Positions 3,155 through 62,956 of a stretch of DNA of 64,000 nt are shown here, piece after piece. Source of the stretch: a virus. Lineage: Duplodnaviria; Caudoviricetes. How positions within the stretch are numbered: the first letter of the stretch is position 1; each line of letters opens with the position of its first letter. The position numbers were made by a program, and so were the translations under genes. The stretch covers positions 1-64,000 of the IMG/VR virus record IMGVR_UViG_3300021426_000070. One strand, given 5' to 3'. The notes beneath the pieces were generated by a model. The model was not told the DNA's origin. It saw nothing but the letters and a program-made list of their open reading frames with translations, and ran no database searches.

Positions 3155-3162
3155 ATCAGATG

Positions 3163-9523: not shown

Positions 9524-9528
9524 CTATG

Positions 9529-11266: not shown

Positions 11267-11374
11267 ACAAACGAAATCTTTACATGGGTTATAAGATAGA
11301 CTATCAGTATCATCAACACACAGAGCACCAAAGAGCACCCAAGACAATTTGAACCATCATTTTTTGCCATAACA

Positions 11375-12253: not shown

Positions 12254-12430
12254 ATTCCTCTCTGTCGTTTGGTGTGAAACTTATCTGCATGGTGACACAC
12301 AGCCACCCGCACAGAATCCTATCCCAACTGACATCAAAGAACGGCAATACATGGAACTCCCACATAGGGCAAAACGTTGTCAGATGGAAACTCAGAAACT
12401 TACCTATATACAAATCTGTCTTCATAATCT

Positions 12431-21936: not shown

Positions 21937-23031
21937 TTAACCTGCAACGGCTGTTGAGTCGATTGTGTAAATCTGGTCAACATTGCTCAGAATAGGAACA
22001 ACCATAGCCTGTGAGCTTGTAAACTCACGCAATGGGTCGTTCTGAGAATAGCGAGAGGTCAGAATGAAGTCATCAACGGTCTGATAGACAACACCTGCAA
22101 CGGGGCGGGTAGCCTCTGCGCAGTTAGTCCAAACGAGGTCGCCGAGTTGGTCAGAGCAAGTAAAGGTCATCACACCATTCTGCCATGGAGTGTGATTCTG
22201 TTTCTTGCCGTTGAGCTCAGTCTTAATCTTACGTGCTACACGATGGAGCTTAACACCCCACTTGGTCTGCAGCACCTGACCAGCCTTCTCGAAGTCCAAC
22301 ACGGGGATGTTAGAGCCCGTCTGAGTGGCAATGCCTTGGTTGAAAGCATACTGACCACGTACCTGCTTAGAGCGATACAGAGCGTTCAAGGCTACATCGT
22401 CTGCAAACACATCGGTAATGTTGTTTTGGTCAGCCAAAGCCTTGTCGAAAATCTGCTGAATATCGTCAAGAGGGGTAGAGTTCTCTACATTGCTCCAAAT
22501 GGTAGATGCCTTAAACTTGTTCTCTTCGAGGAAACCAACGTCAATACGTACGCCAGTACCACCCGAACGTGTAGAAACACCAACGCCGCTAGAGAGCTCA
22601 GATAGGAACATATCCTCAATACGCTCGTAGATAGCCTCGATGACACGGGGAACGTCTGCGAAAAGGTTCTGCACTACCTGAGCAGAAGGGGTGTTGGTCG
22701 CAATCATAGCATCCAAATCCTTCATCTGCTTTTCAGTCAGATAGAGTTTCAGACCCAACTTAGGAATAGAGCCCGTAGCTGTCTCGATGCGGTCACGGCT
22801 CTTCAATGGCAGCTCAGAGTCGAGAGATACAACGTCAGCAGCTACACGGGTGTACTCCGCAGTAACAGATGCCCAACGTCCATCAGCCGAATATACGGGG
22901 TTCAAGTGGTCACGATACAGATATGTGAGAGCGTTAGCATTCATACGCTTCTCATTCAGTTTCTCAACAACCTGTCTTACAAGCAGTGGAAACCATTTCT
23001 CAGTGTACTCAAAATAAAGCGATTTTTCCAT
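21937..23031 (-). CDS. Major capsid protein
   Basis: 364 aa, follows scaffold and decoration genes; ADVVSLDSELPLKSR...GSIPKLG pattern of gpE-like capsids. Confidence 0.85.
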   Translation of the reverse strand: MEKSLYFEYTEKWFPLLVRQVVEKLNEKRMNANALTYLYRDHLNPVYSADGRWASVTAEYTRVAADVVSLDSELPLKSRDRIETATGSIPKLGLKLYLTEKQMKDLDAMIATNTPSAQVVQNLFADVPRVIEAIYERIEDMFLSELSSGVGVSTRSGGTGVRIDVGFLEENKFKASTIWSNVENSTPLDDIQQIFDKALADQNNITDVFADDVALNALYRSKQVRGQYAFNQGIATQTGSNIPVLDFEKAGQVLQTKWGVKLHRVARKIKTELNGKKQNHTPWQNGVMTFTCSDQLGDLVWTNCAEATRPVAGVVYQTVDDFILTSRYSQNDPLREFTSSQAMVVPILSNVDQIYTIDSTAVAG

Positions 23032-23038
23032 AGTTTAC

Positions 23039-23641
23039 TTACGCCTCCTCATCGTGTTTGAAAAGAATGTTAATTTTGTTTGCAGCGTTTGCGGCATTGA
23101 AAGCAGTCTCGATAGCTCCGAGCTGCAGCTTCATCACCTTGTCGTTGACAACGCCGTCAATCAGAATAGAAGCAGCGGGCTTCTTCTTCAGAAGTGAGCG
23201 GAAAAGAACACCCTCGATAGCAGCACCCTCGGGAAGAGAACTGTACTTATAAACGGTGTTTCCGTCCTCGTCCTTGCTCTCTACCTCACTCTTGGTGTAG
23301 TAGGTCTTGCCAGCGGCTACCTCAGTGTCCTCAGAGAGAGTGTAAGTGCTACCACTCTTCTCATAGTAACCGCTTGTCGAAGGGTTGCCAGTTGGGTTAG
23401 CAACGGCAGTGTAAACATCTTCTACAACGGGAACGATAGGAGCGGGCTTATAGGTCTTCACATCATTCTCGGTCTGAGAAATGATGACGTGACCCGCATA
23501 CAAAACGTCCTCGGGGAAGCCGCTCATGTCAAGAGTACGACCGCCCTCAATGTCGGTATTATGCTTCTTGATGACAATCGAGTCATAGGTGCTGAAGTCA
23601 ATACCTTTCTTCTCTTGTGTAATGTCTTGTTTCATTTTCAA
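23039..23641 (-). CDS. Head decoration protein with inserted module
   Basis: Lies between scaffold and capsid genes; GGRTLD...AGHVII pattern. Confidence 0.6.
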   Translation of the reverse strand: MKMKQDITQEKKGIDFSTYDSIVIKKHNTDIEGGRTLDMSGFPEDVLYAGHVIISQTENDVKTYKPAPIVPVVEDVYTAVANPTGNPSTSGYYEKSGSTYTLSEDTEVAAGKTYYTKSEVESKDEDGNTVYKYSSLPEGAAIEGVLFRSLLKKKPAASILIDGVVNDKVMKLQLGAIETAFNAANAANKINILFKHDEEA

Positions 23642-23646
23642 TTAAA

Positions 23647-24570
23647 TTAATGTTTAACCATCATGGCGGCGATAGCCTTGGCTTCATCCTCAGATGCCTC
23701 CTTTGGTTCTCCCGAACGAGAGAAAGGAGTGTTCTTTGTCAATCCCATTGCCTTGATGTTTGTTGCAACCACGTTCAGATGGTTGGTGATAGCATCATCA
23801 TCCATGTCATCGGTGATAGCAAAACCCTCGTCAATGCGAGCCTGTGGAATGCCCAATTCTTTTGCCTTAGATATAATTCCGTCTTGACGGGCTTTCTTTG
23901 CGGACTCAGCCTTCAGCTTCTCACTTTCAGCCTTCATCGAGTTGATAGTTTCGAGCTGTTGCTTGTTTTGGTCGGTAAGGGCGGTCAGTTGCTCGGTGAG
24001 CTTATTGGTCTGTTCCTTGCTTTGGTTCTGTATTGCCTCAAGCATCTGCTTGAAAGCATTACGCTCTTCCTCAGCCTTGGTACGTTCCTCTTGAAGTTTC
24101 TTCAGATATTCCTCTTGCATATCCTTGATATACTGCGGAATTTCCTTGTCCTTCTTCATTTCTTCGAGCTTCTTACGCTCTTCCTCTTCCTTAGCGGCTT
24201 TCTTAGCAGCCTCTTCCTCAGCCTTTTTCTTTGCTTCCTCAGCGGCTTTCTTGGCAGCTTCCTCTTCGGCAGCTTTCTTCTTAGCCTCTTCCTCAGCAGC
24301 CTTAGCAGCGGCAGCTTTCTTAGCAGCCTCCTCTTCAAACTCTTTCTTTGCGTTCTCTTTAGCTGTCTTAGCAGCCTCGGTAGCCCGCTTGTCGTTGAGC
24401 TTTTGGAGGTTCTCGAGGAATCCTTTCTGACCCTCTACAATTGAATCCACGTTGTCATCAGTAACAAACCCCATCGCTGCAAGCGACTCGGCATGTGCCT
24501 GAAGAATCTCGTCACCTAAACCCAAAGATGCGAACTTTGTTTTTAGTTTAAGGAAAATTTTTTCTTTCAT
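23647..24570 (-). CDS. Capsid scaffolding protein
   Basis: Coiled coil with EEAAKKA repeats; first gene of the head operon. Confidence 0.7.
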   Translation of the reverse strand: MKEKIFLKLKTKFASLGLGDEILQAHAESLAAMGFVTDDNVDSIVEGQKGFLENLQKLNDKRATEAAKTAKENAKKEFEEEAAKKAAAAKAAEEEAKKKAAEEEAAKKAAEEAKKKAEEEAAKKAAKEEEERKKLEEMKKDKEIPQYIKDMQEEYLKKLQEERTKAEEERNAFKQMLEAIQNQSKEQTNKLTEQLTALTDQNKQQLETINSMKAESEKLKAESAKKARQDGIISKAKELGIPQARIDEGFAITDDMDDDAITNHLNVVATNIKAMGLTKNTPFSRSGEPKEASEDEAKAIAAMMVKH

Positions 24571-24635
24571 TTCTTAACTATATTATGATTGTCTTTTAAA
24601 CGAGTTGGGGTAACTCCCCCGTTAAATTAACATTG

Positions 24636-24707
24636 CAAATTTAATCATTTACAGCGAAATGAAAGTCTTTTGTTTATTTTGGCTTGATACACTTTATAAA
24701 GTGTGCG
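24636..24707 (-). promoter_or_regulatory. Late-type promoter of head/tail operon (-7 box TAAATTTG plus operator 24686-24707)
   Basis: GATACACTTT-at-AAAGTGTGCG palindrome. Confidence 0.72.
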
Positions 24708-24822: not shown

Positions 24823-25362
24823 TCATACAACTCGTCTGTAATAGTCGTATAGGTACGACTGCCAATAAAGGTTCGAGTAGTACACGCCATTGTGCTTCTT
24901 GTAATCGCCAAACATGCGCACACGACCATCTTCACCTAGTATGGCAAACTTCGAGCACCCAATAAGCTCGTCAATAACATACCTCACCTCGTCAGAGTCG
25001 ATGCCGTATGTCTTGATGGTCGGGTATATGTACTTTCTGAAAGCTGTCTCAGAGTCCGTCATATCACCCTCGGGCTCGATGTCAAGTATGCCGTTATGGG
25101 CAAACCATATCTTACCCTTTTTGAACGGGTGGCAGTTCTTAACACCTACTGAGCCGTGAGTGGCAAAACGAAAGTGGATTATCACATCTTCGTCTTCGGG
25201 CACAAACTGCAGTCGGTTGTAGAAACGCTCAAAGTTCATGCCTTTGTAGTGCATCGACTTACTAGCAAACCCCATGCCATGAGGATTTTTGCGGTGCATA
25301 GCGTAAAGCTCTACTTTTGATGGTAGCTGTGTACCAGCCTTTATAACACATATAACACACAT
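24823..25362 (-). CDS. Class II glutamine amidotransferase (Ntn-hydrolase)
   Basis: N-terminal MCVI; NPHGMG; HFRFATHG; CHPF; HNG; TDSE. Confidence 0.9.
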   Translation of the reverse strand: MCVICVIKAGTQLPSKVELYAMHRKNPHGMGFASKSMHYKGMNFERFYNRLQFVPEDEDVIIHFRFATHGSVGVKNCHPFKKGKIWFAHNGILDIEPEGDMTDSETAFRKYIYPTIKTYGIDSDEVRYVIDELIGCSKFAILGEDGRVRMFGDYKKHNGVYYSNLYWQSYLYDYYRRVV

Positions 25363-25612: not shown

Positions 25613-26536
25613 TTAAGCGGCTACACGACCTCTGTTGACCTCTTGCTTGCTGGTCTCAAAGAAACGTTTCTCAGCGGCGGTCAAGAAAGGTATCTCAGAG
25701 ATAGTCTCAACCTCGTTCTCGATAACGTTATTCATTGAGTAGGCTACGAGCTTTGACAAGAAAGTCACCCACATCTTAATCTTGGTAAAGTTTGTCGAGC
25801 CTTGGTGCTGACGAAACTCGATTGTGTGATGACGAACGAAAGACTCAGCATTAACAGAGTGATAGCGGTCAAAACCCATTACCGAACGGACAGCCTCGGG
25901 TGTGTGGCAGTATGAGAAATCGTAACCATCAATAGGCTTGCAATAGAAAGCGTCACGGCGGCTAGGTGCAAGAAAACTGCTAATCACATTCTGCAGCTTC
26001 TGATAGTTTTTGAACACGTTCACATACTGCTCACCACTGAGCTCAGAAGCACCGATATGCACGTGCAAGCCCGTTGATTTGTTGACGTATGCGCCAGCCT
26101 CGTTGAGAGCGTTGCAGCAAGCCTCGAGCTTATCAAAGCCGCTCTTGTTGCCGTTGAGGATTGGCGATACACACTCGATAGGTTCACCATCCATACCTAA
26201 CGTCCGACTGATTGATGAGTCTGACACAAACTTAAAATGGTCTCTGTTATCGTTGTGGTTGTAGTTCTCAAACTCGTAAGGCACGTTATCACGGCTAGCT
26301 ACATCCTCAAAGCGGTAGCGTGGCATATTGCACTCGATTTCAACACCAAAGGTAAAGCTGAAACGTGGCTTGCTCTCTCTGTGTACCACGGGCAGAACGA
26401 AAGAAATCTCATTCTCTCTGATACCTAACTTGATAAGAGCCTTCACTTTCTCAGAACGTGAGCCCTTCATGTTAATCACATCGTTAATCTGCTCACTGAG
26501 TGACTTTCTGTTGTTGAAACCATTGTCGTACATCAT
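25613..26536 (-). CDS. Putative amidoligase (COOH-NH2 ligase family)
   Basis: TFGVEIE, DSSI, ECVSPIL, STGLHVHIG, TIEFRQHQGS. The start is placed downstream of the promoter at 26735-26742. Confidence 0.88.
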   Translation of the reverse strand: MMYDNGFNNRKSLSEQINDVINMKGSRSEKVKALIKLGIRENEISFVLPVVHRESKPRFSFTFGVEIECNMPRYRFEDVASRDNVPYEFENYNHNDNRDHFKFVSDSSISRTLGMDGEPIECVSPILNGNKSGFDKLEACCNALNEAGAYVNKSTGLHVHIGASELSGEQYVNVFKNYQKLQNVISSFLAPSRRDAFYCKPIDGYDFSYCHTPEAVRSVMGFDRYHSVNAESFVRHHTIEFRQHQGSTNFTKIKMWVTFLSKLVAYSMNNVIENEVETISEIPFLTAAEKRFFETSKQEVNRGRVAA

Positions 26537-26870
26537 AATAGCGGTGCTAGTTTTTAAAGAGCTCGCTCTGCTCGTTGGGGTTAGACTTAAAAAGTGCTTT
26601 GGGCGATTTGACCGTTTTCTAACGAGTGCCGCTCGCTTGCAGTTTATGAGGTGTGCCTCACCTACGCCCTCTGTCACCATTTCAAAGACAAGTTTTACGA
26701 GTGCCTCTCGGTCTCTCATTTCTGATTGACATTGCAAAGATAGGCATTTTCTCTTTACTGCGCAAATATTTTGCAAAGAATTGTATGTTTTTTAACATCG
26801 TTTCACGTCAAATGGGTGGTTTTTCACAATCGTTCACAAAAAGGCATAAAAAAAGCCCGCTATAAGCGGA

Positions 26871-33391: not shown

Positions 33392-34810
33392 CTATAATCC
33401 TTTTATTTGGTCAAGTAATCCGCTTATTTCCTCTTTGTGCTTATTGTATGGTATATGATTTAATACCCATCTTAAAGCCACTATCTGCTCATTACTCGGA
33501 CTCCAAGTTGACTGAGGTCTGAGGGATTTGAGTTTATTTTTGAGCCATTTGATTTCATCTTCTATCCTGTCAGGTATATACTCATTCCAAGGATTCACGA
33601 GGTCTTTAATAATATCGCTAAGTATCTTTTCATCCTCTTCACTCCACTCATTTGTGGTTGTGCAATTTGCTTTACAGCCAACTCTGTTTTTGATGGATTT
33701 GAGCCAATCCTCTGCCCCTTCATAATATATTGCGTTTTTAACAAGTATCTTTATTGCATCATCTGTCATTAATGCTTCAAGAATAACTTTCTTTATTTTC
33801 TCGTCCTCTTCACTCCAAGGCTTCTGCTCAATCTTCTCCAATTTCTTCTCGTATGGATTCCATCTGTAGCCCGCTTCCATAATTGCCTTTTCAAGTCGTT
33901 CACGCTGTTCTTTGGTTGATGGCTTTATGTCTTGCATCCAAGTCCATTCACCATGTTCCCCATCTGACTCAATTTTGAAACCATCATCGACACTTATACC
34001 ACAATAAGCATAACTATATCCATTTGCATCTATCTTCTTGAAAATAAATGGCAAATCACCATCAGCAAGCACATCACCATCTTTTGCATCAGCAAGAGTC
34101 CACAAACGATAATTATCATCTATATGTTCTATGCAAAGTGTTCCAATGGTATCTTCGTCAAATTTAAGTCTATAATTGTCTTCTAATATATCAATAACCC
34201 TAACTACATTACCATCTTCAACGTTTACAAGCCAATTGTCTTTGTGAAACTTTGGCTTAACCTCAGCAGGCTTATGCTCACCTTGATTTTCAAGTAACAC
34301 AAAACAATCCGAACATATGTTTATTAGTTCTGCAACAAAGTTATCATCAACATAATAAAAATCACCATCACGGAAACAAGTATATTTCGGTGAAGCAATA
34401 CATTTATATGTTTCACCAATCTTAACAGAATTTTTGCTTTGCTTTTCGGTACTAACATGCTGTATAAGCTCTCTGTTGAAGCTTATATCAACGCCATTAT
34501 CTCTTGCGCACATACCCCATACATTGCCGTTATATGTAAAGCTCACACCACTATATGGATTACCGCTCTGCTCTTCAAGCCATGCGTAAATATCTTCTTT
34601 CCTTTTTTGTGTAAAGTCTTTATGAAGTTCTACTGCTTCTACAATATCTTTCTTTATCCTATCGTCATCAGACTCGGCAAGTTCGTGGAATAAGTTTCGG
34701 ATATAAAACTTGTCGTTTTCACTTATAGACGAATCACCAAGTATGTGTTTAGCATCGCTTAGTTTTTTGTCATAGGCTTTTGCCTTTTCATCAATCGTAA
34801 GTTCTCTCAT
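33392..34810 (-). CDS. Modular WSEEDE-repeat hypothetical protein
   Basis: Repeated KQ/GE.KP and WSEEDEK modules shared with genes in 57246-60084. Confidence 0.6.
   Translation of the reverse strand: MRELTIDEKAKAYDKKLSDAKHILGDSSISENDKFYIRNLFHELAESDDDRIKKDIVEAVELHKDFTQKRKEDIYAWLEEQSGNPYSGVSFTYNGNVWGMCARDNGVDISFNRELIQHVSTEKQSKNSVKIGETYKCIASPKYTCFRDGDFYYVDDNFVAELINICSDCFVLLENQGEHKPAEVKPKFHKDNWLVNVEDGNVVRVIDILEDNYRLKFDEDTIGTLCIEHIDDNYRLWTLADAKDGDVLADGDLPFIFKKIDANGYSYAYCGISVDDGFKIESDGEHGEWTWMQDIKPSTKEQRERLEKAIMEAGYRWNPYEKKLEKIEQKPWSEEDEKIKKVILEALMTDDAIKILVKNAIYYEGAEDWLKSIKNRVGCKANCTTTNEWSEEDEKILSDIIKDLVNPWNEYIPDRIEDEIKWLKNKLKSLRPQSTWSPSNEQIVALRWVLNHIPYNKHKEEISGLLDQIKGL
33512..33646. repeat. 135-bp near-identical direct repeat, copy 1 (copy 2 at 58428-58562)
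   Basis: Both copies encode WSEEDEK.LSDIIKDLVNPWNEYIPDRIEDEIKWLKNKLKSLRPQ. Confidence 0.9.
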
Positions 34811-36009
34811 CGTGTTTCTTCGTCTATTATTGAATTGTTTTTGAGGAAAGGACAATCATCCAAAACCCCATTTTCGTTTCTAAAATCTTTATCACCACTA
34901 TTCAGATAGCAATGAATATATCTTCCAAGCATTTCACATCTATCGTGGTCGCAGTCATCATCATCCCCATGGAAACAATTGTGGGGACAGCCATAGCAAT
35001 TAGTGAAATGTACTATTGTAGTATAAGTAAATCTTTTATCATCCATAATCACAACATCTTAAGTTTTTCTATTTCCTTTTCAGCCTCAATAGCTTTCTCT
35101 TTATGATAAGCAAGTTCTTTCTCTTTTTCTTTGATTTGAATTTCTTTCACTTTTCCGTTCCACATCAACCACTTTGCTTTGACTGTATCTCTGAAAGTAG
35201 CAAGATTTGCATATCTCTGAATGCTTTCAATATCTTTTGGATGCTCATCAAATATTATCCTAACCATAGGAGAAACAGCTAAGTAATCAATACTCAGATG
35301 CACCATATCTTCATACTCTTGTGGGTATGCTTTGATAAAGTCCTGAACTTCCTTGTTTTCTATCCAATAAAACAGCCAATGTTTAGTGTCTGTTATATAT
35401 TTGTGTATATCAGAATTTAACTCTGAAACCCTTTTAATTAACTCTGTTACTTCCATAATCACAACCAATAAAAAGAATTACCATTAGCATCTACTTTTAG
35501 CAAATGAAGCACTTTTCTATTAACCCATACAAGGGCTGTGAATATATATCTTTTCATAATAACTTATTTTTTAATAAATTCTCTCATCTTATCTAGCACT
35601 GATAATTTGTAATTGTCACCAACGGTATGTTCATATACCCATTTAAGGGCATCATAATATCCACTATCATATTCATTCATAATCACTTTTTCTTTATAAG
35701 GTTCTTTATTTCCTCTAAATCTCTCCTAAGCAAAACCCCTACATAAAGGAATAGTGCTACTGCGCCAACTAACACGAATATAATCAAATATCCCATTTCC
35801 ATAACTTCATCCATCTATTATCATTTTTATTGGGTAAGACAAAAAAGTAGCCACTATCTGACCTATTGCGGCAATCCCCGTGTACTCAAGACATTCGGAC
35901 AGATTATTGTCCTTATCAGTCCATATGGAGGCATAGAAAAACGCTGCCACGATAAACCATATGGTTATTATCGTAATCGAACCTTTCTTCATAATCTCAT
36001 TGTTATTTG

Positions 36010-42359: not shown

Positions 42360-42689
42360 TTAACCATTTATACTACCCTTTGCAGCCGCTGCAGCTCTAT
42401 CTTCATTAGTTGCTCTCATGGCGTTTGTCATCAGAGTAGTAGCTAAAGTACCTTCTTGTGTTCTTGCACCACCAATAGTAAGGAAAGGTCTTGAACCTGC
42501 TATTTCTCTTGATGAAGTCCATCGTGAAGCTATCTCTCTAACTTGCTGTGCTCGTCTTATGTTACCAACAGCATTTGCTTGTCGGGCAAGGCGGCTTGCT
42601 GTCCTATTGATGTTCTCAGCAGTACGGAACGTGGTTCGCTTTAAACCATCACCACCGTAACTAATACGACCATTTCTATTTGTTCTGAC
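42360..42689 (-). CDS. GTC-initiated Arg-rich peptide A (109 aa, VRTNRNGR...AAKGSING)
   Basis: Open frame bounded by TGA immediately before GTC AGA; paralogue of peptide H (T[FY]RTAENI..TA.RL). Has its own promoter at 42724-42731. Confidence 0.7.
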   Translation of the reverse strand, partial: VRTNRNGRISYGGDGLKRTTFRTAENINRTASRLARQANAVGNIRRAQQVREIASRWTSSREIAGSRPFLTIGGARTQEGTLATTLMTNAMRATNEDRAAAAAKGSING

Positions 42690-42723
42690 TCAGCTAAATA
42701 TTTTGATTATTAATACTCTGCTG

Positions 42724-42795
42724 CAAAGATACAAATAAAAGAGATAGTACGAATACCACATCTATTATTACTTGTTACACTTTCAAAATAATACC
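42724..42795 (-). promoter_or_regulatory. Late-type promoter of peptide A
   Basis: TATCTTTG plus operator half-site GTTACACTTT at 42774. Confidence 0.65.
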
Positions 42796-42923: not shown

Positions 42924-45230
42924 TCAATAAACGCCCAACTCTTGCTTAGTAACCTTCTTCTTCACCAATGGATGCCCTAAGATGTTATGTAAAAAATAAT
43001 ACCGTACACCATCGAGTATGTGATTGTCGTGGTCTTCGGGTACGTTTGTGTAGTTACCGAACTTATCCTTTGCATAGACATAGTTTCGCAACTCATCTTG
43101 TGTATTCAAGGAACGCTTAGTTACATAAATCTCATAGTCAAGCATCTTTGACAAACCAGCCTCAATAGAGCCAGCACCTTTAGCCACGGGGTATATGATA
43201 ATACCGCCTAACGCTATCTCATCTACCAATCGTGGGTCTGCGCTCTCGGAATATACAAAACCATCATCACCTCTGTCCGCCTCTTGTCTAAGCTCACGGA
43301 TAATATCGCCACTTGTCATAGCATTTCGGTAACAGAGCTCGTCAATATACAAGCGGTTATCTATAACACCACACCTTGCGATAGCCGTAACGTCATTTGA
43401 ATATCCAAAGTCGATACATCTTCCTATCTTCTTTGCATAGCTCGGGAACTCATCAACGATACCCCATTTCTTGAACACAGCACCCTCAGCGACATCTGCC
43501 CACTGCCCCATGACGATATGCGCATACCTCTGAGGGTTCTTGACCTTCATATCAAGCACCTCTTTCAAGAACTGCTCGGAAAGGTTATTGATATTATCAA
43601 GGTATGTAGTATGGATATGTAGTACGTTCGGGTGTGTGCTTATCTGTACGGGTACGCCATCGAAATACTCTATCTTATGCGTGTCCTTGATAAACCGCTT
43701 ATACACCCAATGGTTAGAGTCGCATGGGTTCATGATGATGATTACCCTATTCTGCAGTCCTTTGACACGAATAGAGAGCATAATCTTCTCAAACTCTTCT
43801 TCCGACACCCATTCCTCAGCCTCATCGACAACAAACGTTGTGACACCTTGGATAGATTTAAGCTTTGCCGTCTGATTACCGCTTGAAGTGTGTATGCCTC
43901 GGAACATCACACGTGCCTTGGTCATATTGTTCACCACATCGGTCTTGGTCTTTGAGAAATACTCTTCTGTATTATCGACCTCCACCTTCTCCCAAAACTC
44001 GGGAATAACGGAGATAGCTGCCGACACCATGGTAAAACGGGTATATAGTATCTGATGGGCTAATTTCTTCTCGGGGTTATACTCAAAGGTGAGGCGTTCT
44101 ATAAAACGGGAAGTGTTGTACGACTTCCCACTGTTGTGACTAACAGTTCCATCTGCGTGTAAATAGCGTTGATTTCCATCCAAATGAATACCACACCATT
44201 CACCATTACCAACAGATTCAATAGTTAGCTTAGAAACCAACCAATCTGCTCTCTTATGTGGATATACTTTCTTACGTGCTATCTTACACGGAATACGCCA
44301 AACATCACCATTAATAGACAACCGATATACTATACCACAATCCTTTTCATATATCTTTGCTCTTCTTGTTCTTAAAGAAGTCCTAAAACCTAATGTATCA
44401 GCTATCAGCTTTATTTGTCTTGCAATAATCTCTTTCTTCTGTGTTATCTCATAACCATTACGAGACATATTGCCATCTGTATCAAGCAAACCAGCCAATA
44501 GCTCGAGTCGTACCTCTTCACTATTAGCTATATACTCTTGCGGAATATGCTTGTTACCTACAAGATTATAGAAACGCAACTTTTCCATAAAAGGATTATC
44601 GTGACACCCTTTTTTCTTTAAACGTAATGTTTCTGCCTTACCACGTTTACCATTCAATGACAACACCATTCCGTTTCTATCTACATACTCTTGCAGATAA
44701 TCCTTTATCTCTTTGTCGGGTGTTGTTATCTGAGGATATACCGAAGTACCGTCACCTAGCCAAACACCGAGCATATAGGGGTCAATCTTTACGGGCTGTT
44801 CTTTGTAAGGAATAGAGTTTGCCTTATAACCATACCAACGTTCTCTAAAATTCTTACTCTGTTTTAAGAACTCTTGAATATTGATATCTATCTTATCTTC
44901 TTTATTTGGATAGCGACCTTCGGAATATATGCCTCTGCCCTTTCTTATGCTTAATATGTGCCCATCGTTTACATAGTAGTCCTCAGCGTTCGTCTGATGT
45001 ACTCTATACATTTCACTATACCCGTGATAGGTTTTAAGCACGTTCCTTGGTGTGCCGTCATCACCCATCACCTTGTCACCAACCTTGATATCCTTAATCT
45101 GTTTAATGGTCATATCTGCCATTATCACCTCTTGGTCGGGTCGCTCACAGCCTCGTCCCCCCGTTACAAGAATGATGAATTTCTCCTTATCGTTATATAG
45201 CGGATAATATACGCTCTGTGTCTTACTCAT
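42924..45230 (-). CDS. terL: Terminase large subunit (PBSX-type), intein-containing
   Basis: Walker A GGRG|SGKS split by the intein; Walker B FVVDEAEE; MNP; IDFGYSND; DNHILDGVRY. Confidence 0.95.
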   Translation of the reverse strand: MSKTQSVYYPLYNDKEKFIILVTGGRGCERPDQEVIMADMTIKQIKDIKVGDKVMGDDGTPRNVLKTYHGYSEMYRVHQTNAEDYYVNDGHILSIRKGRGIYSEGRYPNKEDKIDINIQEFLKQSKNFRERWYGYKANSIPYKEQPVKIDPYMLGVWLGDGTSVYPQITTPDKEIKDYLQEYVDRNGMVLSLNGKRGKAETLRLKKKGCHDNPFMEKLRFYNLVGNKHIPQEYIANSEEVRLELLAGLLDTDGNMSRNGYEITQKKEIIARQIKLIADTLGFRTSLRTRRAKIYEKDCGIVYRLSINGDVWRIPCKIARKKVYPHKRADWLVSKLTIESVGNGEWCGIHLDGNQRYLHADGTVSHNSGKSYNTSRFIERLTFEYNPEKKLAHQILYTRFTMVSAAISVIPEFWEKVEVDNTEEYFSKTKTDVVNNMTKARVMFRGIHTSSGNQTAKLKSIQGVTTFVVDEAEEWVSEEEFEKIMLSIRVKGLQNRVIIIMNPCDSNHWVYKRFIKDTHKIEYFDGVPVQISTHPNVLHIHTTYLDNINNLSEQFLKEVLDMKVKNPQRYAHIVMGQWADVAEGAVFKKWGIVDEFPSYAKKIGRCIDFGYSNDVTAIARCGVIDNRLYIDELCYRNAMTSGDIIRELRQEADRGDDGFVYSESADPRLVDEIALGGIIIYPVAKGAGSIEAGLSKMLDYEIYVTKRSLNTQDELRNYVYAKDKFGNYTNVPEDHDNHILDGVRYYFLHNILGHPLVKKKVTKQELGVY
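44133..45149 (-). mobile_element. Intein with LAGLIDADG homing endonuclease (339 aa)
   Basis: Starts at Cys (CERPDQEV) and ends SHN before Ser; contains LGVWLGDG and LLAGLLDTDG motifs. Confidence 0.93.
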
Positions 45231-45402
45231 ACTCTTCTCCCGTTTCAATCACATAACCTTGCTTATGGCACTGAGGGCACTCTATATCCCTCAGCTTACA
45301 CCCGATAGGTCGGACGGCTAGCCACCTCTTCAAACAAGATAGGCAGACAACCTCACTGACCTTATGCGGGATATTCTCGTTTATATCCACGATATTGCTC
45401 AT
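45223..45402 (-). CDS. 59-aa zinc-ribbon protein (below ORF-track cut-off)
   Basis: MSNIVDINEN...CLSC...CPQC...; overlaps both neighbouring genes by a few bases. Confidence 0.65.
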   Translation of the reverse strand: MSNIVDINENIPHKVSEVVCLSCLKRWLAVRPIGCKLRDIECPQCHKQGYVIETGEEYE

Positions 45403-46702: not shown

Positions 46703-47044
46703 TTATCCCGAGATAGCTGCTTTTGCAGCGGTATTGGGTGTGTACGTCTGTGATTGTCGTGCAGCCACCTCATAGTTTACGGTGTTTCCTATTACCTTGG
46801 TGAGTACTGCACCACTATCATTAGTAAGGGCTTCATTGGGTCTAATGCTGTCTGCCCTACCTACTGCCCTTAGATAGTTAGCCTCTATGGTTCTGATACG
46901 CTGCTGCCTTTGTCTGTTGCCTCTTGCAGCCGCTACTAACCGCCTTGCAGTCTCCCTTATATTCTCAGCAGTTCTATACGTGCTGTTGTTGCCATCAAGT
47001 GGGCTTGTGCTATTGTAAAATGATGGATTCTTTAATCTTTTGAC
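46703..47044 (-). CDS. GTC-initiated peptide H (113 aa, VKRLKNPS...AAKAAISG)
   Basis: AGGAGG-gaagcaga-GTC AAA; no in-frame ATG. Confidence 0.7.
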   Translation of the reverse strand, partial: VKRLKNPSFYNSTSPLDGNNSTYRTAENIRETARRLVAAARGNRQRQQRIRTIEANYLRAVGRADSIRPNEALTNDSGAVLTKVIGNTVNYEVAARQSQTYTPNTAAKAAISG

Positions 47045-47060
47045 TCTGCTTCCCTCCTAT

Positions 47061-47309
47061 TTATCCGTTACTACTACCTTTTGCAGCTAGTGGTGCGTAC
47101 TTGTCACCGATACGAGCACCATAAGATACCTTGATGTTTGCCCTACGAGACCAATCCACGCTCTGCAAGCGGTCGTTGATATTGTTTCTATACTCTTGTG
47201 CGATACGTGAGATACTTGCTAGACGTGTGCCCCTAGCTGTATTCGACATACGGGCTGCTTGCTCGTTGATATCGCCTATAGACTTTGCCATTGGTTCTCT
47301 CCGTCTGAC
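47061..47309 (-). CDS. GTC-initiated peptide G (82 aa, VRRREPMAKS...AAKGSSNG)
   Basis: AGGAGG-gtacaga-GTC AGA; an in-frame ATG at codon 7 is an alternative start. Confidence 0.7.
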   Translation of the reverse strand, partial: VRRREPMAKSIGDINEQAARMSNTARGTRLASISRIAQEYRNNINDRLQSVDWSRRANIKVSYGARIGDKYAPLAAKGSSNG

Positions 47310-47320
47310 TCTGTACCCTC

Positions 47321-47521
47321 CTATCCGTTTGAATTTGATAAGGCATTGAGCATATTCGCTCTTGCTCTGCCTATTCTGTTATAGTTATCTTGCCCATACT
47401 GCCTTAGTAATGCATTCGCACGGCGATTAATGGCTCGTCCTACCATGGCTCTTCTTGCATATTGCCCCAAACCTCTTACATCACTAGTACGATATTCCAA
47501 TGTTCTCTTACTTGCTCTGAC
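47321..47521 (-). CDS. GTC-initiated peptide F (66 aa, VRASKR...ALSNSNG)
   Basis: AGGAGG-aagcTGA-GTC AGA; in-frame stop directly before GTC. Confidence 0.68.
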   Translation of the reverse strand, partial: VRASKRTLEYRTSDVRGLGQYARRAMVGRAINRRANALLRQYGQDNYNRIGRARANMLNALSNSNG

Positions 47522-47532
47522 TCAGCTTCCTC

Positions 47533-47664
47533 CTATCTGTTAGATAATCCCATTTGACATACTCTAATTAAAGATTGTTGGATGATAACGCAACTGTCCG
47601 TTAGCGAAATGCTTCTTGGTCTTACCATTGCTCTCCAATTCGACAATGCCCTACCGAAATACAT
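47533..47664 (-). CDS. 43-aa ATG ORF ending MGLSNR (degenerate family member?)
   Basis: C-terminus matches the family except for a Gly>Arg change. Confidence 0.35.
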   Translation of the reverse strand: MYFGRALSNWRAMVRPRSISLTDSCVIIQQSLIRVCQMGLSNR

Positions 47665-47666
47665 TT

Positions 47667-47924
47667 TTAACCATTACTCAATCCCATATACGAGCTACGT
47701 GCAAACTGCAGTCTGTTGGCTCTGCCCATATTGCGCATATACTCATCTGTGTTGTCCTCAGCCGACACGTTGCCACGAGCCGCCTTATAGCTTGATTTGT
47801 TACGTATGTTGCTTACGTACCTCATAGCTGCTTGGAAAGCTCTATCCAAACGTTCCCCGTCTGTCCTAGCCGCTATGCGGTTGTACTGACGTGTTATATC
47901 ACTTACTGACTTTGTTCTTCTGAC
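47667..47924 (-). CDS. GTC-initiated peptide E (85 aa, VRRTKS...YMGLSNG)
   Basis: TAG TGT CGG GTC AGA; KS..DI..Q motif lies upstream of the first TTG/ATG. Confidence 0.72.
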   Translation of the reverse strand, partial: VRRTKSVSDITRQYNRIAARTDGERLDRAFQAAMRYVSNIRNKSSYKAARGNVSAEDNTDEYMRNMGRANRLQFARSSYMGLSNG

Positions 47925-47930
47925 CCGACA

Positions 47931-48176
47931 CTAACCATTACTCATACCCATATAGGTACTACGTGAATACTTTCTGTTGTCTATCTCATTAATATTACCA
48001 TTGCCACGAAGTGCATTTCTGTATGCGCTCGAATAGCTTGGTGTGTTCTGAATGTTATTCAGATACCTAAGAAACGTTCTTCCTATGCGGTCTTGTCTCT
48101 GAGGATTACCCTCTGAGCGTTCCCACAAAGCTTGCGCTTGGTCAAGTATATCATTCTTACTCTTATTTCTTCTGAC
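47931..48176 (-). CDS. GTC-initiated peptide D (81 aa, VRRNKS...YMGMSNG)
   Basis: TAA AGC CGA GTC AGA; shares NRKYSRSTYMG with peptide C. Confidence 0.72.
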   Translation of the reverse strand, partial: VRRNKSKNDILDQAQALWERSEGNPQRQDRIGRTFLRYLNNIQNTPSYSSAYRNALRGNGNINEIDNRKYSRSTYMGMSNG

Positions 48177-48182
48177 TCGGCT

Positions 48183-48395
48183 TTATCCGTTTGTAAGACC
48201 CATATAGGTAGAGCGTGAATACTTTCTGTTGTAAGCACCCTCACCGCCTTTTCGAAAGCTGCGTTGGCGCATAATCCTATCGGTGTATCTGTCAGCCGCT
48301 ATGTTAGCCGCTGCCACCCTAGAAGCCGTTGCTCGTGGATTGTTCTCTATCCTATCGGCTTGCTCTAAGATTTCTCCAAAACTCTTCCCTCTGAC
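48183..48395 (-). CDS. GTC-initiated peptide C (70 aa, VRGKS...YMGLTNG)
   Basis: A-rich leader then AGA GTC AGA; not in the ORF track. Confidence 0.72.
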   Translation of the reverse strand, partial: VRGKSFGEILEQADRIENNPRATASRVAAANIAADRYTDRIMRQRSFRKGGEGAYNRKYSRSTYMGLTNG

Positions 48396-48484
48396 TCTTC
48401 TGTTACTTTTAATTGTTATTATACATCAAATGCTACGGCAGACACTCTAACGAGGGAAAGCCATAGCATATATTCCGTGTCGGG

Positions 48485-49015
48485 TTATCCCGCTGACAAG
48501 CCCATTGAATACGTGCCGTCTGCGTTCTGTCTGATGACATTGCCACCGCTACCCTCAAGACGACCTTCAACAACACGTGCCATGCCGTTATCAAGCCATG
48601 CTTGGATTACCCTAGGCGAAATGTTGTTCATACCCGTGCGAACATCATAGTCACGCTGACGGCGGTTAGAAAGCGACTTACGACCACTCTGTGACACAAG
48701 ATTTCCATCCATATCACGATTGGTAAACGTCCATGTGCTACCGCCAGCCCTACGACCATCTGCAGACATCTTACCAGACCTTGTGCGGGTGATGGTCTGA
48801 ATCTGCTGACCGCTGTTCCACGCTTGCTGCTGACCTTGCAACTCTGAAAGCTGATAGCCTCGAGAATTAACCAAAGGCTGTGCAGTACGTGCTCCACCAG
48901 TATAAGCGGAGTTTGCACCACGTCCATCAATACCCGCATTGATTCGGGCACGCTGCTGAGATACCGTATTGGTATTCGGATTGGTGCGATTTCGTTCTGT
49001 TCTTTTTCTTGGCAT
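48485..49015 (-). CDS. Arg/Gly-rich protein with canonical ATG, ending YSMGLSAG
   Basis: Same C-terminal motif as the GTC family. Confidence 0.8.
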   Translation of the reverse strand: MPRKRTERNRTNPNTNTVSQQRARINAGIDGRGANSAYTGGARTAQPLVNSRGYQLSELQGQQQAWNSGQQIQTITRTRSGKMSADGRRAGGSTWTFTNRDMDGNLVSQSGRKSLSNRRQRDYDVRTGMNNISPRVIQAWLDNGMARVVEGRLEGSGGNVIRQNADGTYSMGLSAG

Positions 49016-49041
49016 AGTTCTTCTATATTAATTATTAAACA

Positions 49042-49413
49042 TTATCCTACCGCATTACCCATCTTTGCAGAATTGGACGAATTAGCTGATGAGCCACGAT
49101 AGACTTCCCTTCCTAGCTCTGCATAGCGTTCACGATTGTAATCACGGATAAAGCGTCCGTGCGTTGCATTTGCTGCATTGGGGTTAGCTGCCGCACGTCT
49201 CTCTATCTCTCTCTGTATGTTGTCGATATAACGCTGACCGATGGCACTAAGCCGCTCTCTGTTCCTATACCACGTGTCCGTACCATAGGTGCTGCCCTCG
49301 ATACGGGCTAACTGAGCCCTTACAGACTCGATAGAGCGACCTCTTCGGGTGCTACGCCTAGTATTGGCGTTCACCCTCGCATTGCCTAAGTATGATAAAT
49401 TACCTTTTCTGAC
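49042..49413 (-). CDS. GTC-initiated peptide B (123 aa, VRKGNL...KMGNAVG)
   Basis: The -7 box at 49436-49443 lies downstream of the ORF-track ATG (49509); leader AAAGGAttgcaga-GTC AGA. Confidence 0.68.
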   Translation of the reverse strand, partial: VRKGNLSYLGNARVNANTRRSTRRGRSIESVRAQLARIEGSTYGTDTWYRNRERLSAIGQRYIDNIQREIERRAAANPNAANATHGRFIRDYNRERYAELGREVYRGSSANSSNSAKMGNAVG

Positions 49414-49435
49414 TCTGCAATCCTTTCTTTTGTTG

Positions 49436-49557
49436 CAAAGATAGGTATAATTCCGTATATAAGGAAAGTATTTCCATAATGAAAACGCACACTTTACAAA
49501 TAGTGCCAAATGACATCATTAGAGCATACTCATTTAGCATTTTTCTCCTTATCTTTG
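49436..49557. promoter_or_regulatory. Symmetric divergent late promoter pair around operator 49486-49507
   Basis: TATCTTTG on minus (49436-49443) and plus (49550-49557) strands, equidistant from CGCACACTTT-ac-AAATAGTGCC. Confidence 0.65.
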
Positions 49558-49706: not shown

Positions 49707-50540
49707 CTAGTCAATAAATTCTATCCTCTGTGAGAACTCTTCACCCTTGATAAAACGCATATCATCGGGATAGCCCGCACGTGCCATAAACTCTTGCTTC
49801 GACTTGAAGTCATCGAAAGAAAGCATGATGTACGCCTCTTGGTTCATGGCGTTCTCGATGGCTTGGGTCTTAACTTGCTCCTTGACATCTTTCATGTGCT
49901 GCTTCTTCTCTTCGTAGCTCTTCTGCTCATTCTTCTCTATCTGAGCGTCCTGCATGGCATTGGCTTGCACTTGTGCCGCCTTGATAGCCTCACGCTGCTC
50001 ACGCTGACGTTCTAAGTCCCGTTGGTGCTCTTCGTTGACTTGCGCCATCATATCGTCCAACTCTGAGGACAGCTTGTTCTCTTCCTCGGTCTGAAAAAAA
50101 TAGTCAGTGCCAATCATGGATAGGTCAACTTCTGTAAGCCCCGCTTTCTTGTAATCCATGAATGGGATAATCTCAGCCAACTTCTGATAGTCAAACTTAC
50201 CGCCTATCTGCGGGTTGTTCAGTGCCGTCAGCACCTCGAGCTCTTCCTTTTCATCGACATCAATAACCTCACAACGGAGCATATAATCCGTCTCGGGTTT
50301 CTCGGGTTCATACTTCTGCTGCTCATCGAGCAACGCCACCTTCTGATTACCGCCCACTAGAACATAGTCGTTACGCTTATTAACAATGATACCGCCTAAG
50401 ATACCAAAGTTCTTCATAGACCGCCTTAACGCCTTTCTACCCTCATCGTCAATGGTACGTGGGTTACGTGGGTGAAAATGTATCTGTGAGCGTTTGAGCT
50501 CTTGTATCTCACTATTTGCAAAAAACTTACTTAACTCCAT
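49707..50540 (-). CDS. ParB/Srx N-terminal-domain protein
   Basis: HPRNPRTI...FGILGGIIVN...LVGGNQKV. Confidence 0.8.
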   Translation of the reverse strand: MELSKFFANSEIQELKRSQIHFHPRNPRTIDDEGRKALRRSMKNFGILGGIIVNKRNDYVLVGGNQKVALLDEQQKYEPEKPETDYMLRCEVIDVDEKEELEVLTALNNPQIGGKFDYQKLAEIIPFMDYKKAGLTEVDLSMIGTDYFFQTEEENKLSSELDDMMAQVNEEHQRDLERQREQREAIKAAQVQANAMQDAQIEKNEQKSYEEKKQHMKDVKEQVKTQAIENAMNQEAYIMLSFDDFKSKQEFMARAGYPDDMRFIKGEEFSQRIEFID

Positions 50541-50555
50541 AATCTTATTTTTCTG

Positions 50556-50627
50556 CAAAGATAAACAGAAAATGTTTATTCAGCGCATTATTTGTACCAC
50601 AATAGCATACTCTTTTGAAAGTGTATC
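50556..50627 (-). promoter_or_regulatory. Late-type promoter of ParB-like gene
   Basis: TATCTTTG plus CATACTCTTT-tg-AAAGTGTATC at 50606-50627. Confidence 0.65.
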
Positions 50628-51034: not shown

Positions 51035-51700
51035 TTATTTAATCTTTCTACGGGTAAAAGTCATGCCATTATCCTTTGCGAACTTCTTGATGACAGAGAA
51101 TTGTATGCCTACATTGGCTCTGTCGCTTATCTCTTGCGCCCTCTGCCTTGTCAAATTTCCTTGTCTCTTTGCATTTGCAGCCGTACTAAACGCATAAGCG
51201 TTCATTCTGCTCGAATAGGTCGCATCAAGCATATTGAGCTCAGAGAATATCTTCTGCTTGTCCCCCCAACCGCCTTTCGGTCTGCGGATAGAGTATGTAT
51301 AGGTCGGTGTTACGGCTCTCACTTCTTTTTGGTCGTACTTCACAGCGTTCCTAATATCTTGTGGTGAGAATGGTACGCCTATTCTACCCGCCATCGTGCC
51401 ATGGAGTCCAGAATTTGCACCCTCTGTCGGATGGTTGTGTGTAAGGATAGCGTCCTTTGTCTTAGCCAAATCACGAATTAAGAACTTAGCACTACTAGCA
51501 TTTCCGCTTACCGACTCTGCGATAATCTCACCATTAGACCCCACAACATACCCTTTTTCAGTCTTGCGGTTGCGTATCTTAGCCTCTAGTTGGCTCACCT
51601 TGAAAGCCTCTTGTCTGTTCATGCCGCTTTCGGTATCGTGAAGATAGCTTCTATCTGTCTTACGTGCCGCCCTTCCTATCGTCTGTATTCCTTCACCCAT
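51035..51700 (-). CDS. JAB/MPN-like domain late protein
   Basis: E(KGYVV)...THNHP...FSPQD metal-binding pattern; late-type promoter at 51734-51806. Confidence 0.55.
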   Translation of the reverse strand: MGEGIQTIGRAARKTDRSYLHDTESGMNRQEAFKVSQLEAKIRNRKTEKGYVVGSNGEIIAESVSGNASSAKFLIRDLAKTKDAILTHNHPTEGANSGLHGTMAGRIGVPFSPQDIRNAVKYDQKEVRAVTPTYTYSIRRPKGGWGDKQKIFSELNMLDATYSSRMNAYAFSTAANAKRQGNLTRQRAQEISDRANVGIQFSVIKKFAKDNGMTFTRRKIK

Positions 51701-62215: not shown

Positions 62216-62956
62216 TTACTTATTTTCATTTTCTTTATCTTTTTTATAGTGATACTCTAATAATACTCTCTGACACAAGGGAAACGTCTGATATATCTTC
62301 TGTAAGTCTTGCGGATAATTGGTCTCAAGCCATAGTAGGCAATCGACATTAAAGCCTATGCCGTTGGATGCCTTTCCGACCTTTGCCCCGTCTCCGCTAG
62401 TAGCAAGCGAATACATAACGGGTTCGGGGAGATTATGCATCTTCATATAGCTGAGTATTTGCTTTTGCGAAAACTCCGCACACGGGTAGGCTTGATAGTT
62501 ATCTGTGTAATGGTTCTCCTTAAAGCGGGTAATCATAAGGTTGCGGTTCATGCCGTCAGCCTTCTTCATGCCTAGGAACACCCATTGCGTGTTGTATTTC
62601 AGCCGCAGAGCCTTGATGACATCAGCAAGCTTCAGCAACTTTTGGTTTGGGTGTGGCGTACAATACAATCCGCTTCTTAGTATATACGTCAGATTCCAAT
62701 GCGGCACTTCCAAGAACTCCACATTCGGGTATTTGGCTTTCACCCAATTTATCCATCTGTCTATATGCTCTAAGCCTTGAACGAAATACAAAAACACACA
62801 TATCACCTTCTTGAACCTCGGATATATTAAATCTAACGTTACTATAGAATCCTTTCCGAGCGAACACATGAGGATGCACGTATCAGTCTGACTAGCCACG
62901 TAGTCGATACAATCATTAGCCGCTATCAGCGGATTACTTCTTATCTTCTTTGCCAT
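62216..62956 (-). CDS. PAPS-reductase-like PP-loop protein
   Basis: SLGKDS PP-loop; GMKKADGMNR; YP..EFS. Confidence 0.8.
   Translation of the reverse strand: MAKKIRSNPLIAANDCIDYVASQTDTCILMCSLGKDSIVTLDLIYPRFKKVICVFLYFVQGLEHIDRWINWVKAKYPNVEFLEVPHWNLTYILRSGLYCTPHPNQKLLKLADVIKALRLKYNTQWVFLGMKKADGMNRNLMITRFKENHYTDNYQAYPCAEFSQKQILSYMKMHNLPEPVMYSLATSGDGAKVGKASNGIGFNVDCLLWLETNYPQDLQKIYQTFPLCQRVLLEYHYKKDKENENK

Follow-up and report, generated by a model that had tools for sequence, protein, structure and literature searches.

The molecular details of how tailed phages select the protein cargo of the head have been worked out in just a handful of model phages, and in none of them does a Gly-terminated C-terminal tail do the selecting. 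Phage T4 carries in its head the small, basic internal proteins IPI, IPII and IPIII and their variable relatives, which are ejected together with the DNA. In the phiX174-type Microviridae, the small and very basic protein J condenses the DNA and is tethered to the inner capsid by a short non-basic C terminus. Ubiquitin, ThiS, MoaD and TtuB are small proteins that function through a flexible C-terminal tail ending in Gly (in Pup, the end is Gly-Gly-Gln/Glu), and they are often encoded beside the enzyme that activates this carboxylate. The partner of TtuB is a PP-loop enzyme, and the ligase of Pup is a glutamine-synthetase-like amidoligase. Here, we analyzed a set of small basic proteins that all end in Gly, most of them encoded by a tandem array at positions 46703 to 49413 of a 64,000-nucleotide stretch of tailed phage DNA (Caudoviricetes; positions 1 to 64,000 of the IMG/VR record IMGVR_UViG_3300021426_000070, hereafter the window). 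The window covers the left half of a record of 129,359 bp, complete by CheckV, in which all genes lie on the minus strand; the host of the phage is a gut or rumen member of the Bacteroidales. The Gly-ended tail of these proteins is a protein-level, family-wide, exposed and transferable C-terminal element.

The array is made up of eight open reading frames (ORFs), U1 to U8, and a ninth (U9) stands apart, downstream of the large terminase gene. All are on the minus strand, and in all nine a TAA or TAG stop codon directly follows the terminal Gly. U1 (49042 to 49413), read from a GTC at 49413, codes for a basic protein of 123 residues ending in KMGNAVG (TAA), the body of which is matched by the family profile. 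U2 (48485 to 49015) starts at ATG and codes for a basic protein of 176 residues ending in SMGLSAG (TAA); its homologues in two closely related viral contigs, L001 and L002, end in SMGLSAG and SMGLSVG, respectively. The next three are members with the YMG-type ending, namely, U3 (48183 to 48395; 70 residues, YMGLTNG, TAA), U4 (47931 to 48176; 81 residues, YMGMSNG, TAG) and U5 (47667 to 47924; 85 residues, YMGLSNG, TAA). U6 (47321 to 47521) is a basic protein of 66 residues ending in ALSNSNG (TAG), with homologues in L001, L002 and L029 that also end in SNG. U7 (47061 to 47309; 82 residues, AKGSSNG, TAA), with an in-frame ATG at 47291, is again matched by the body profile. The final gene of the array, U8 (46703 to 47044; 113 residues, AKAAISG, TAA), lacks any ATG, GTG or TTG start that would yield at least 30 residues and is homologous to the stand-alone U9 (42360 to 42689; 109 residues, AKGSING, TAA). 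A tenth member, a GNAT-fold protein of 218 residues ending in NTLGLTSG, is encoded outside the window (genome positions 66789 to 67457, minus strand). A previous reading of the DNA made without database searches (the sequence-only reading) had listed the nine C termini, and all are present as written, Gly followed by a stop on the minus strand, with U9 (its protein A) lying outside the interval that it named. It had also described the nine as basic, and all of them are, with net charges of +7 to +14 and Arg plus Lys making up 15 to 21% of the residues.

Among the remaining 291 ORFs with 60 residues or more on the minus strand of the genome, Gly is last in 16 (5.5%), so the shared ending is more than chance would give. 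When 160 pooled family sequences were aligned at their C termini, the last position (-1) was Gly in 156, and position -5 was Gly in 144 and Gly, Ala or Ser in almost all members. Position -2 is mostly Asn, Ala or Val (N in 78, A in 40, G in only 5), at position -3 there are 78 N and 56 S, and at position -4 there are 73 L. Since position -1 is far better kept than those adjoining it, paralogy alone is not sufficient to explain the ending. The usual motif can be written as Y-M-G-x-x-x-G-COOH and its broader form as small-x-x-x-G-COOH. Exactly four residues follow the YMG-type motif in 126 of the 141 pooled sequences that carry it, and where the spacing differs naturally (2, 5, 9 or 10 residues beyond YMG), Gly is still last. 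L001 and L002 have 6 to 11 units each, all but one with the Gly end, and the family, equally Gly-ended, is present in distant phages (L012, L013, L016 and L017) and in a contig of a Bacteroidales metagenome-assembled genome (MAG), L022. Distant relatives often start at an ordinary ATG (MA-R/T-K/R-K-S...).

The same ending was recovered in much larger collections. With a profile that included the tail, 119 of the 120 members listed from a collection of 5.8 billion proteins ended in Gly. To avoid circularity, another profile (A4) was built from which the tail and the adjoining KYSRST block had been cut out. Against 1.84 billion cluster representatives (50% identity), it gave 426 matches at an E value of ≤0.001; Gly was the last residue in 111 of the 137 new cluster representatives listed, and among the matches listed with YMG plus four residues, 85 were Gly-ended and 4 ended otherwise. 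Run on raw stop-to-stop ORFs of all the phage DNA fetched, a scan that is independent of gene callers, A4 found the Gly end in 51 of 55 distinct ORFs. In those 51, Gly is encoded by GGA (30), GGT (12), GGC (7) or GGG (2) and followed by TAA (40), TAG (9) or TGA (2). It is also kept where no family gene follows (U8, U9 and the GNAT protein), and in ATG-started and GTC-started relatives alike. The terminal Gly is therefore under selection at the amino-acid level, on the last residue itself, because all four Gly codons and three stops are used and the tail varies in length, yet Gly remains last. The sequence-only reading had made its proposal depend on conservation of the terminal Gly in homologues, and conserved it is, in these ORFs as well as in the cluster representatives listed. 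One member (L014, positions 4983 to 5318) runs past ...YMGLRNALGG for about 40 unrelated residues, in what looks like a lost stop codon.

The major capsid protein, which ends in ...STAVAG and had been counted as part of the same phenomenon, does not belong to it. Its homologues (65 to 73% identical) end in ...QVQG, ...TVSA or ...TVQA, and the end of another capsid-like ORF, located in L023, reads ...KQVAA; as the terminal residue is not conserved, its Gly is a coincidence and the protein was rejected as a bearer of the tail.

The nine bodies had been described as divergent, and this holds only in part. U1, U3, U4, U5 and U7 are homologous to a mutually detectable degree, U8 and U9 form a separate homologous pair (E value of 8e-7), and U2 and U6 are marginal, so that the GNAT protein is the sole clearly unrelated body among the ten. 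Family members number 1 to 17 per genome (profile A3), with diverging middles and fixed ends. The number does not track genome size, an explanation that we rejected since a 178-kb record has 4 copies and a 165-kb record has 17. A search of PHROG at an E value of ≤1 gave only weak matches (best E value, 0.0066) to families of unknown function, no Pfam family matched more than 2 of 41 members scanned, and NCBIfam had no match to the Gly-ended family. Profile matches in the Protein Data Bank (PDB) were repeat-driven or not significant. Ribosomal protein S20 reached an E value of only 0.15, with no support from Pfam or from fold searches, and a relationship to bS20/bS21 was rejected.

An AlphaFold2 model of U5, based on a 41-sequence alignment, had a mean predicted local distance difference test score (pLDDT) of 94.3 and a predicted template modeling score of 0.79, with pLDDT of at least 90 for 79 of the 85 residues. 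It consists of helices (residues 7 to 20, 23 to 41, 44 to 50, 59 to 71 and 76 to 79) and a two-residue bridge from residues 4 and 5 to residues 74 and 75, by which the chain ends adjoin. The conserved N-terminal block ((M)A/V-R-K-K-S) packs on the C-terminal block (K-Y-S-R-S-T-Y-M), and Y79 and M80 belong to the confidently modeled core. Residues 80 to 85 (MGLSNG) are coil; the last five-residue block has a mean pLDDT of 72, and the last two residues have the lowest values. The two conserved terminal blocks would thus be mostly one folded core, and the true tag only the final few residues. Foldseek found no match to the U5 model in the PDB at an E value of ≤0.001, and the best Z score given by VIA-align 2 against 48,161 chains was 4.3, not above noise. 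These blank searches do not prove a novel fold, because small helical models often match nothing clearly. In a library of viral models, only two uncharacterized gut-virome members of the same family were matched, and look-alikes in the ESM Atlas gave nothing usable. Judging by the model, the Gly-ended small proteins make up a family of basic and helical phage proteins that had not been annotated before.

The GNAT protein allowed us to look at the same ending on a different body. Its model (pLDDT of 85) has the fold of a GNAT acetyltransferase, matched by Foldseek, with a probability of 1.0, to enzymes of the SpeG, RimL and RimJ types. Residues 207 to 218, the last 12, fall below a pLDDT of 50 and are predicted to be disordered. 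Close homologues end in LGLTSG, LALTSG, LGLLSG, LGMVSG, MGLLAG or LGLVSG. The pattern (L/M)-G-(L/M)-x-x-G is kept at the end of the closer homologues; the tail is missing from the two most distant. Since the helical family and the GNAT protein share it, the tail appears to be a module able to sit on unrelated bodies. The same GNAT domain forms the C-terminal part of a "minor capsid protein" of Microbacterium phage Caron, encoded between portal and scaffold, and is found inside a giant polyvalent protein of another phage. Solo RimI-like GNATs among late structural genes have been argued to be deployed in the capsid (Iyer et al. 2017, PMC5512222). The proposal of the sequence-only reading that the Gly end is a functional signal is supported by its conservation in homologues, the selection at the amino-acid level, the exposed position of the tail and its presence on the GNAT body.

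The array lies directly upstream of the terminase genes, with a gene of 189 residues in the small-terminase position (no family match) followed by the large terminase gene. The latter (42924 to 45248, minus strand) is interrupted by an intein with Hint and LAGLIDADG domains (Pfam), and its homologue in L002 (about 430 residues) has no intein. Immediately upstream of the array is a ParB-like gene (49707 to 50558, minus strand), which matches PHROG 9353 and other ParB-like PHROGs and, weakly, ParB_N. A gene for a PAPS-reductase-like PP-loop protein (PF01507) with an SLGKDS motif is found at 62216 to 62956 (minus strand), 12 kb from the array and with no adjoining family gene; in relatives, however, it is located beside family genes. 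Homologues of the PP-loop and ParB-like genes were present in 11 of 11 related viral records, and in 10 of them (G002 to G011) family genes are between the two or directly beside them. The arrangement is well represented by G007, in which the PP-loop gene (22554 to 23225) is followed by two family genes (23258 to 23539 and 23558 to 23815) and the ParB-like gene (23828 to 24670). The same order is found in G003 (5495 to 7382), G008 (33651 to 35744), G009 and G011, and MAG contig L022 has the same cassette (9291 to 12283). In related phages, the cassette is upstream of the terminase genes. The remaining record, G001, has the PP-loop/ParB-like pair, and the 53% of its genome that was covered contains no family gene. 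Kinship among the records means that the shared order is in part inherited; however, it is still seen where portal identity is as low as 22%. This linkage of the family to the PP-loop/ParB-like (IbrA/IbrB-type) pair is new here.

We also looked for other candidate partners of a Gly-ended protein. A ThiF/E1 gene was not found in the complete 129-kb phage genome (PF00899, no match at an E value of ≤1, with matches in 14 of 14 control genomes), nor was a Prok-JAB gene, and an E1-like or classic JAB partner was rejected, neither being encoded by the phage, although an E1-like enzyme might be supplied by the host. A RadC/JAB-like gene (51035 to 51700, minus strand) shows an HNHP...S-x-x-D pattern, read from the sequence (..THNHP..PFSPQD..), and its product has no Pfam, PHROG or PDB sequence match. 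Homologues or shortened relatives of it stand beside the array in six records, but two nearly complete records have none. The arrays are accompanied by a second family whose ends are conserved (from M-G-E-G... to ...Y-R/K-K-I-K). Its long forms have the RadC/JAB-like HNHP...S-x-x-D pattern, which the short forms have lost, and its loci are, besides the one just given in the window (51035 to 51700), L013:6214-6708, L017:7464-7940, L002:3746-4273, L022:12292-12933 and L023:850-1542.

The head module contains an Amidoligase_2 gene (25613 to 26776, minus strand; PF12224, 110.6 bits; PHROG 2443) and, as its neighbor, a class-II glutamine-amidotransferase-like gene (24823 to 25362, minus strand; GATase_4 match). 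This pair is located between the portal and the scaffold/capsid genes, a position conserved in relatives. The amidoligase is a candidate carboxylate-amine ligase and as such could act on a terminal carboxylate. However, G003 (100% complete) and G010 (96%) have no such gene, and their family members are still Gly-ended. Obligate co-occurrence with either the amidoligase or the RadC/JAB-like gene was rejected, as both fail in nearly complete genomes. In other phages, the amidoligase/amidotransferase pair has no known link to Gly-ended proteins. In the LUZ24-like phages for which the pair has been described (e.g., UFV-P2), it is on the strand that carries early genes.

We favor, with a probability of about 40%, the reading that the Gly tail is a free-C-terminus address tag by which basic proteins and an enzyme are loaded into the phage head. 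A partner in head assembly would read the free Gly-terminated end, the tag would load a variable set of DNA-binding basic proteins plus one enzyme into the capsid, and the loaded proteins would travel there with the DNA and be ejected together with it. Such a tag would be analogous to the capsid-targeting sequence of the T4 internal proteins or to an encapsulin cargo-loading peptide, but would be C-terminal and not removed. This is favored because the genes are in the packaging module, the basic proteins vary in number and body as those of T4 do, and the GNAT domain is delivered by other phages as a fusion to a head protein. The coil of the U5 model and the disorder of the GNAT model indicate that the tag would be exposed.

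Several points weigh against it. A virion location of the Gly-ended proteins is putative, and the phage collection searched did not contain a cultured relative. We know of no capsid-targeting or cargo-loading peptide of which a terminal Gly is a feature. The family coexists with at least two capsid modules; the capsid protein here matches PF03864 (lambda E-type), and the complete G003, with a portal that is 22% identical, has no match to it. A sister clade that starts with MSEP or MAEP (P0173, P0207, P0241, P0248, P0257 and P0281; alignment A6) has the same body and a basic ...RRNNR(R/S) end in place of the Gly tail, so the tail is dispensable for some relatives. Scans of viral and metagenome sequences yielded nothing useful on the gene context of that clade. 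Finally, the linkage to the PP-loop/ParB-like pair suits an enzymatic reading at least as well. Head packaging, one of the two roles suggested by the sequence-only reading, gains circumstantial support from the packaging module, from the GNAT domain that is fused to a MuF-position head protein elsewhere and from the T4-like layout, which does not decide between it and carboxylate activation, the other.

In that enzymatic reading, the main rival although we regard it as unlikely, the Gly carboxylate would be a substrate, activated as an acyl-adenylate or acyl-phosphate by the PP-loop protein with the ParB/Srx-like NTPase or by Amidoligase_2 with its GATase-like partner. The activated end would then be amidated, thiolated, joined to the amine of another protein or closed onto its own N terminus. 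The tail, made of small residues, flexible, variable in length (2 to 10 after YMG) and invariably closed by Gly, is of the type that known C-terminal-activating enzymes require, as established for ubiquitin-like proteins, ThiS/MoaD and TtuB; the family genes adjoin the PP-loop/ParB-like genes in 10 of 11 related records and in L022, Amidoligase_2 sits between the portal and capsid genes of this lineage, and the chain ends are neighbors in the U5 model (bridge from 4 and 5 to 74 and 75). However, the phage encodes no ThiF/E1 or Prok-JAB protein, and adenylation of protein carboxylates is not known for PF01507 enzymes. In the part of G001 covered, the PP-loop/ParB pair has no family gene with it; in the present genome, 12 kb separate the PP-loop gene from the array; gene order among related records may be inherited, and Gly ends are kept in G003 and G010, which have no amidoligase. 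Up to 17 paralogues per genome are unlike a carrier protein, and RadC-type JAB domains are thought to lack the groove for the ubiquitin tail (PMC5512222). Activation of the ubiquitin-like or sulfur-carrier kind, as the sequence-only reading had it, is contradicted by the helical fold, the xG end and the missing ThiF/E1 and Prok-JAB genes; its weaker form, with the PP-loop and ParB-like proteins as partners, has the tight linkage in ten related records in its favor. A new tagging or circularizing system, in which the phage PP-loop/ParB-Srx-like proteins or the amidoligase would covalently join the terminal Gly to a lysine of the capsid or portal, a DNA-borne amine or the protein's own N terminus, seems quite improbable to us.

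The tail might also be structural, with the Gly at -5 capping the last helix and the terminal carboxylate clasping a basic N-terminal strand, its own or that of a paralogue (GxxxG-type packing), or a DNA phosphate. Y79 and M80 in the core, the semi-ordered last block (pLDDT of 72), the pairing of the N- and C-terminal blocks in the model and the small residue (Gly, Ala or Ser) almost always found at -5 are consistent with this. Nevertheless, we find it unlikely, given that confidence in the U5 model is lowest for the final two residues, that the same ending occurs on the fully disordered tail of the unrelated GNAT fold, and that the 2 to 10 residues after YMG, with Gly still last, are hard to square with one fixed intramolecular contact. 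A conserved, exposed and terminal tail might also be a short linear motif for a host protein, acting after ejection or during infection and read as the free C-terminal tip of SSB is, with the proteins as effectors rather than packaged cargo; ParB-like, RadC-like and GNAT domains are types typical of early-acting phage effectors (PMC5512222). The many paralogues, their strong basic charge and the proximity to the terminase are not specifically predicted by such a motif, which we consider improbable. The least credible to us is a nucleotide or translational constraint, be it a termination-reinitiation context, stop read-through across U3/U4/U5 or gene-60-style bypassing at GGA-stop. Several junctions do read GGA-TAG-GAGG, or GGA-TAA with the next GTC 5 to 15 nucleotides on, and U3, U4 and U5 are in one frame with single stop codons between them. 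Against this, the full range of Gly and stop codons is used, and Gly is kept in the three genes that no family gene follows and in ATG-started relatives with ordinary spacing, so that a translational or nucleotide-level artifact is largely excluded. Read-through or a polyprotein was rejected because only U3, U4 and U5 share a frame and the other junctions shift. Bypassing was rejected because no matching landing codon opens a frame after U3; a GGT located 14 nucleotides after U5 does give an open frame, which merely overlaps another small ORF as an alternative reading of it.

A small conserved ORF (MVK...GIVELESNGKTKK...) lies between U5 and U6 (47533 to 47690, minus strand), its ATG overlapping the stop of U5. 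It is intact in L002, and an in-frame TAG interrupts the copy here. A frame that overlaps it and ends in ...QMGLSNR is probably not a gene.

The start codons of the family are unusual. An in-frame (G/A)GTCA(G/A)A precedes U1, U3 to U9 and the GNAT gene (8 of the 9 window ORFs), with the first bases of the GTC, on the minus strand, at 42689, 47044, 47309, 47521, 47924, 48176, 48395 and 49413. The GTC is often 5 to 9 nucleotides after a GGAGG-like stretch, and for several of these ORFs the stretch before the conserved coding sequence offers no ATG, GTG or TTG start. ATG-started relatives begin with M-A-R-K-K-S where the GTC-started ones begin with V-R-K-K-S. Every member here but U2 appears, from these signals, to start at GTC, and the GTC-started and Gly-tailed sets are nearly identical in this genome. 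The phage also codes for a tRNA with the anticodon GAC (genome positions 69105 to 69178, minus strand; L004:5105-5178), which has a C1-A72 mismatch as in bacterial initiator tRNAs and an anticodon loop (UUGACUU) that can pair with GAGUCAG around the codon. In a tRNA cluster, at genome positions 85529 to 85617 (minus strand), ARAGORN detected a tRNA-like gene in which the anticodon arm is expanded and the anticodon has four bases, "atag".

A TATCTTTGC box at 49435 to 49443 (minus strand), 22 nucleotides upstream of the GTC of U1, resembles the Bacteroidota -7 promoter element and is likely the promoter of the array. Another copy (42723 to 42731, minus strand) is upstream of U9. The window has 16 copies versus 0.83 expected (e.g., at 3162, 26734, 42723, 42803, 49435, 50555 and 51733), mostly on the minus strand and before genes, including the ParB-like, RadC/JAB-like and amidoligase genes. 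Judged by this distribution, TATCTTTGC is probably the -7 element of the main promoter of the phage.

The family is unannotated and yet widespread (426 cluster representatives at 50% identity), and has a confident predicted fold with no solved relative and a six-residue element at its end. If the address tag is real, it would provide a handle for loading foreign proteins into the capsids of Bacteroidales phages, and it would account for the hypervariable arrays of genes for basic proteins that adjoin the terminase genes in viromes of the gut and rumen. If carboxylate activation is real, these proteins would be the first candidate substrate of the phage PAPS-reductase-like/ParB-like (IbrA/IbrB-type) pair, which has long been unexplained. 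What the family does also bears on a private start codon of the phage, since all members but U2 appear to be GTC-started and an initiator-like GAC tRNA is encoded.

Compared with the ubiquitin-like proteins and sulfur carriers, the present family has in common a small size and a flexible C-terminal tail ending in Gly. However, the ubiquitin-like fold is a beta-grasp, whereas the U5 model has four to five helices and one short bridge; ubiquitin-like proteins end in GG, and the present ones in xG (GG in only 5 of 160); and those systems come with E1/ThiF, which the present genome lacks while having many paralogues. In the Pup/PafA system, the ligase always accompanies the tag, whereas the amidoligase is dispensable here (absent from G003 and G010). 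Protein J is a chain of 20 to 40 residues, unfolded, in single-stranded DNA viruses; the present proteins are predicted to be folded and helical, with 60 to 120 residues, and belong to tailed double-stranded DNA phages. The cargo-loading peptides of encapsulins and the targeting tail by which the prohead protease of HK97 ends resemble the present tail in being short, flexible, C-terminal and rich in Gly, Ser and Leu, and, as among encapsulin cargoes, a short flexible C-terminal peptide is common to unrelated bodies (the helical family and the GNAT protein). Those peptides dock cargo inside an HK97-fold shell, whereas binding of the tail to a shell is putative here and would involve two capsid types, and peptides of the encapsulin/HK97 type are not known to need a terminal Gly.

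The T4 internal proteins and the present family alike consist of small basic proteins whose bodies diverge and whose short terminal peptide is shared, and in both the number varies among related phages. In T4, the tag is at the N terminus and the prohead protease removes it, whereas the present one is C-terminal, at the stop codon, with Gly as the last residue. The conserved N-terminal block of the family is part of the fold in the model and so does not correspond to a removable N-terminal peptide of the T4 type. There is no relation in sequence or fold between the two, and a virion location is putative for the present family. In MuF fusions and polyvalent proteins, of which ParB-like and RadC-like domains are typical (PMC5512222), the same GNAT domain is fused to a head protein in the MuF position or included in a giant polyvalent protein. 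There, the domains are covalently fused, whereas in the phage described here they are encoded by separate genes, and a short tail ending in Gly would take the place of the fusion in their delivery.

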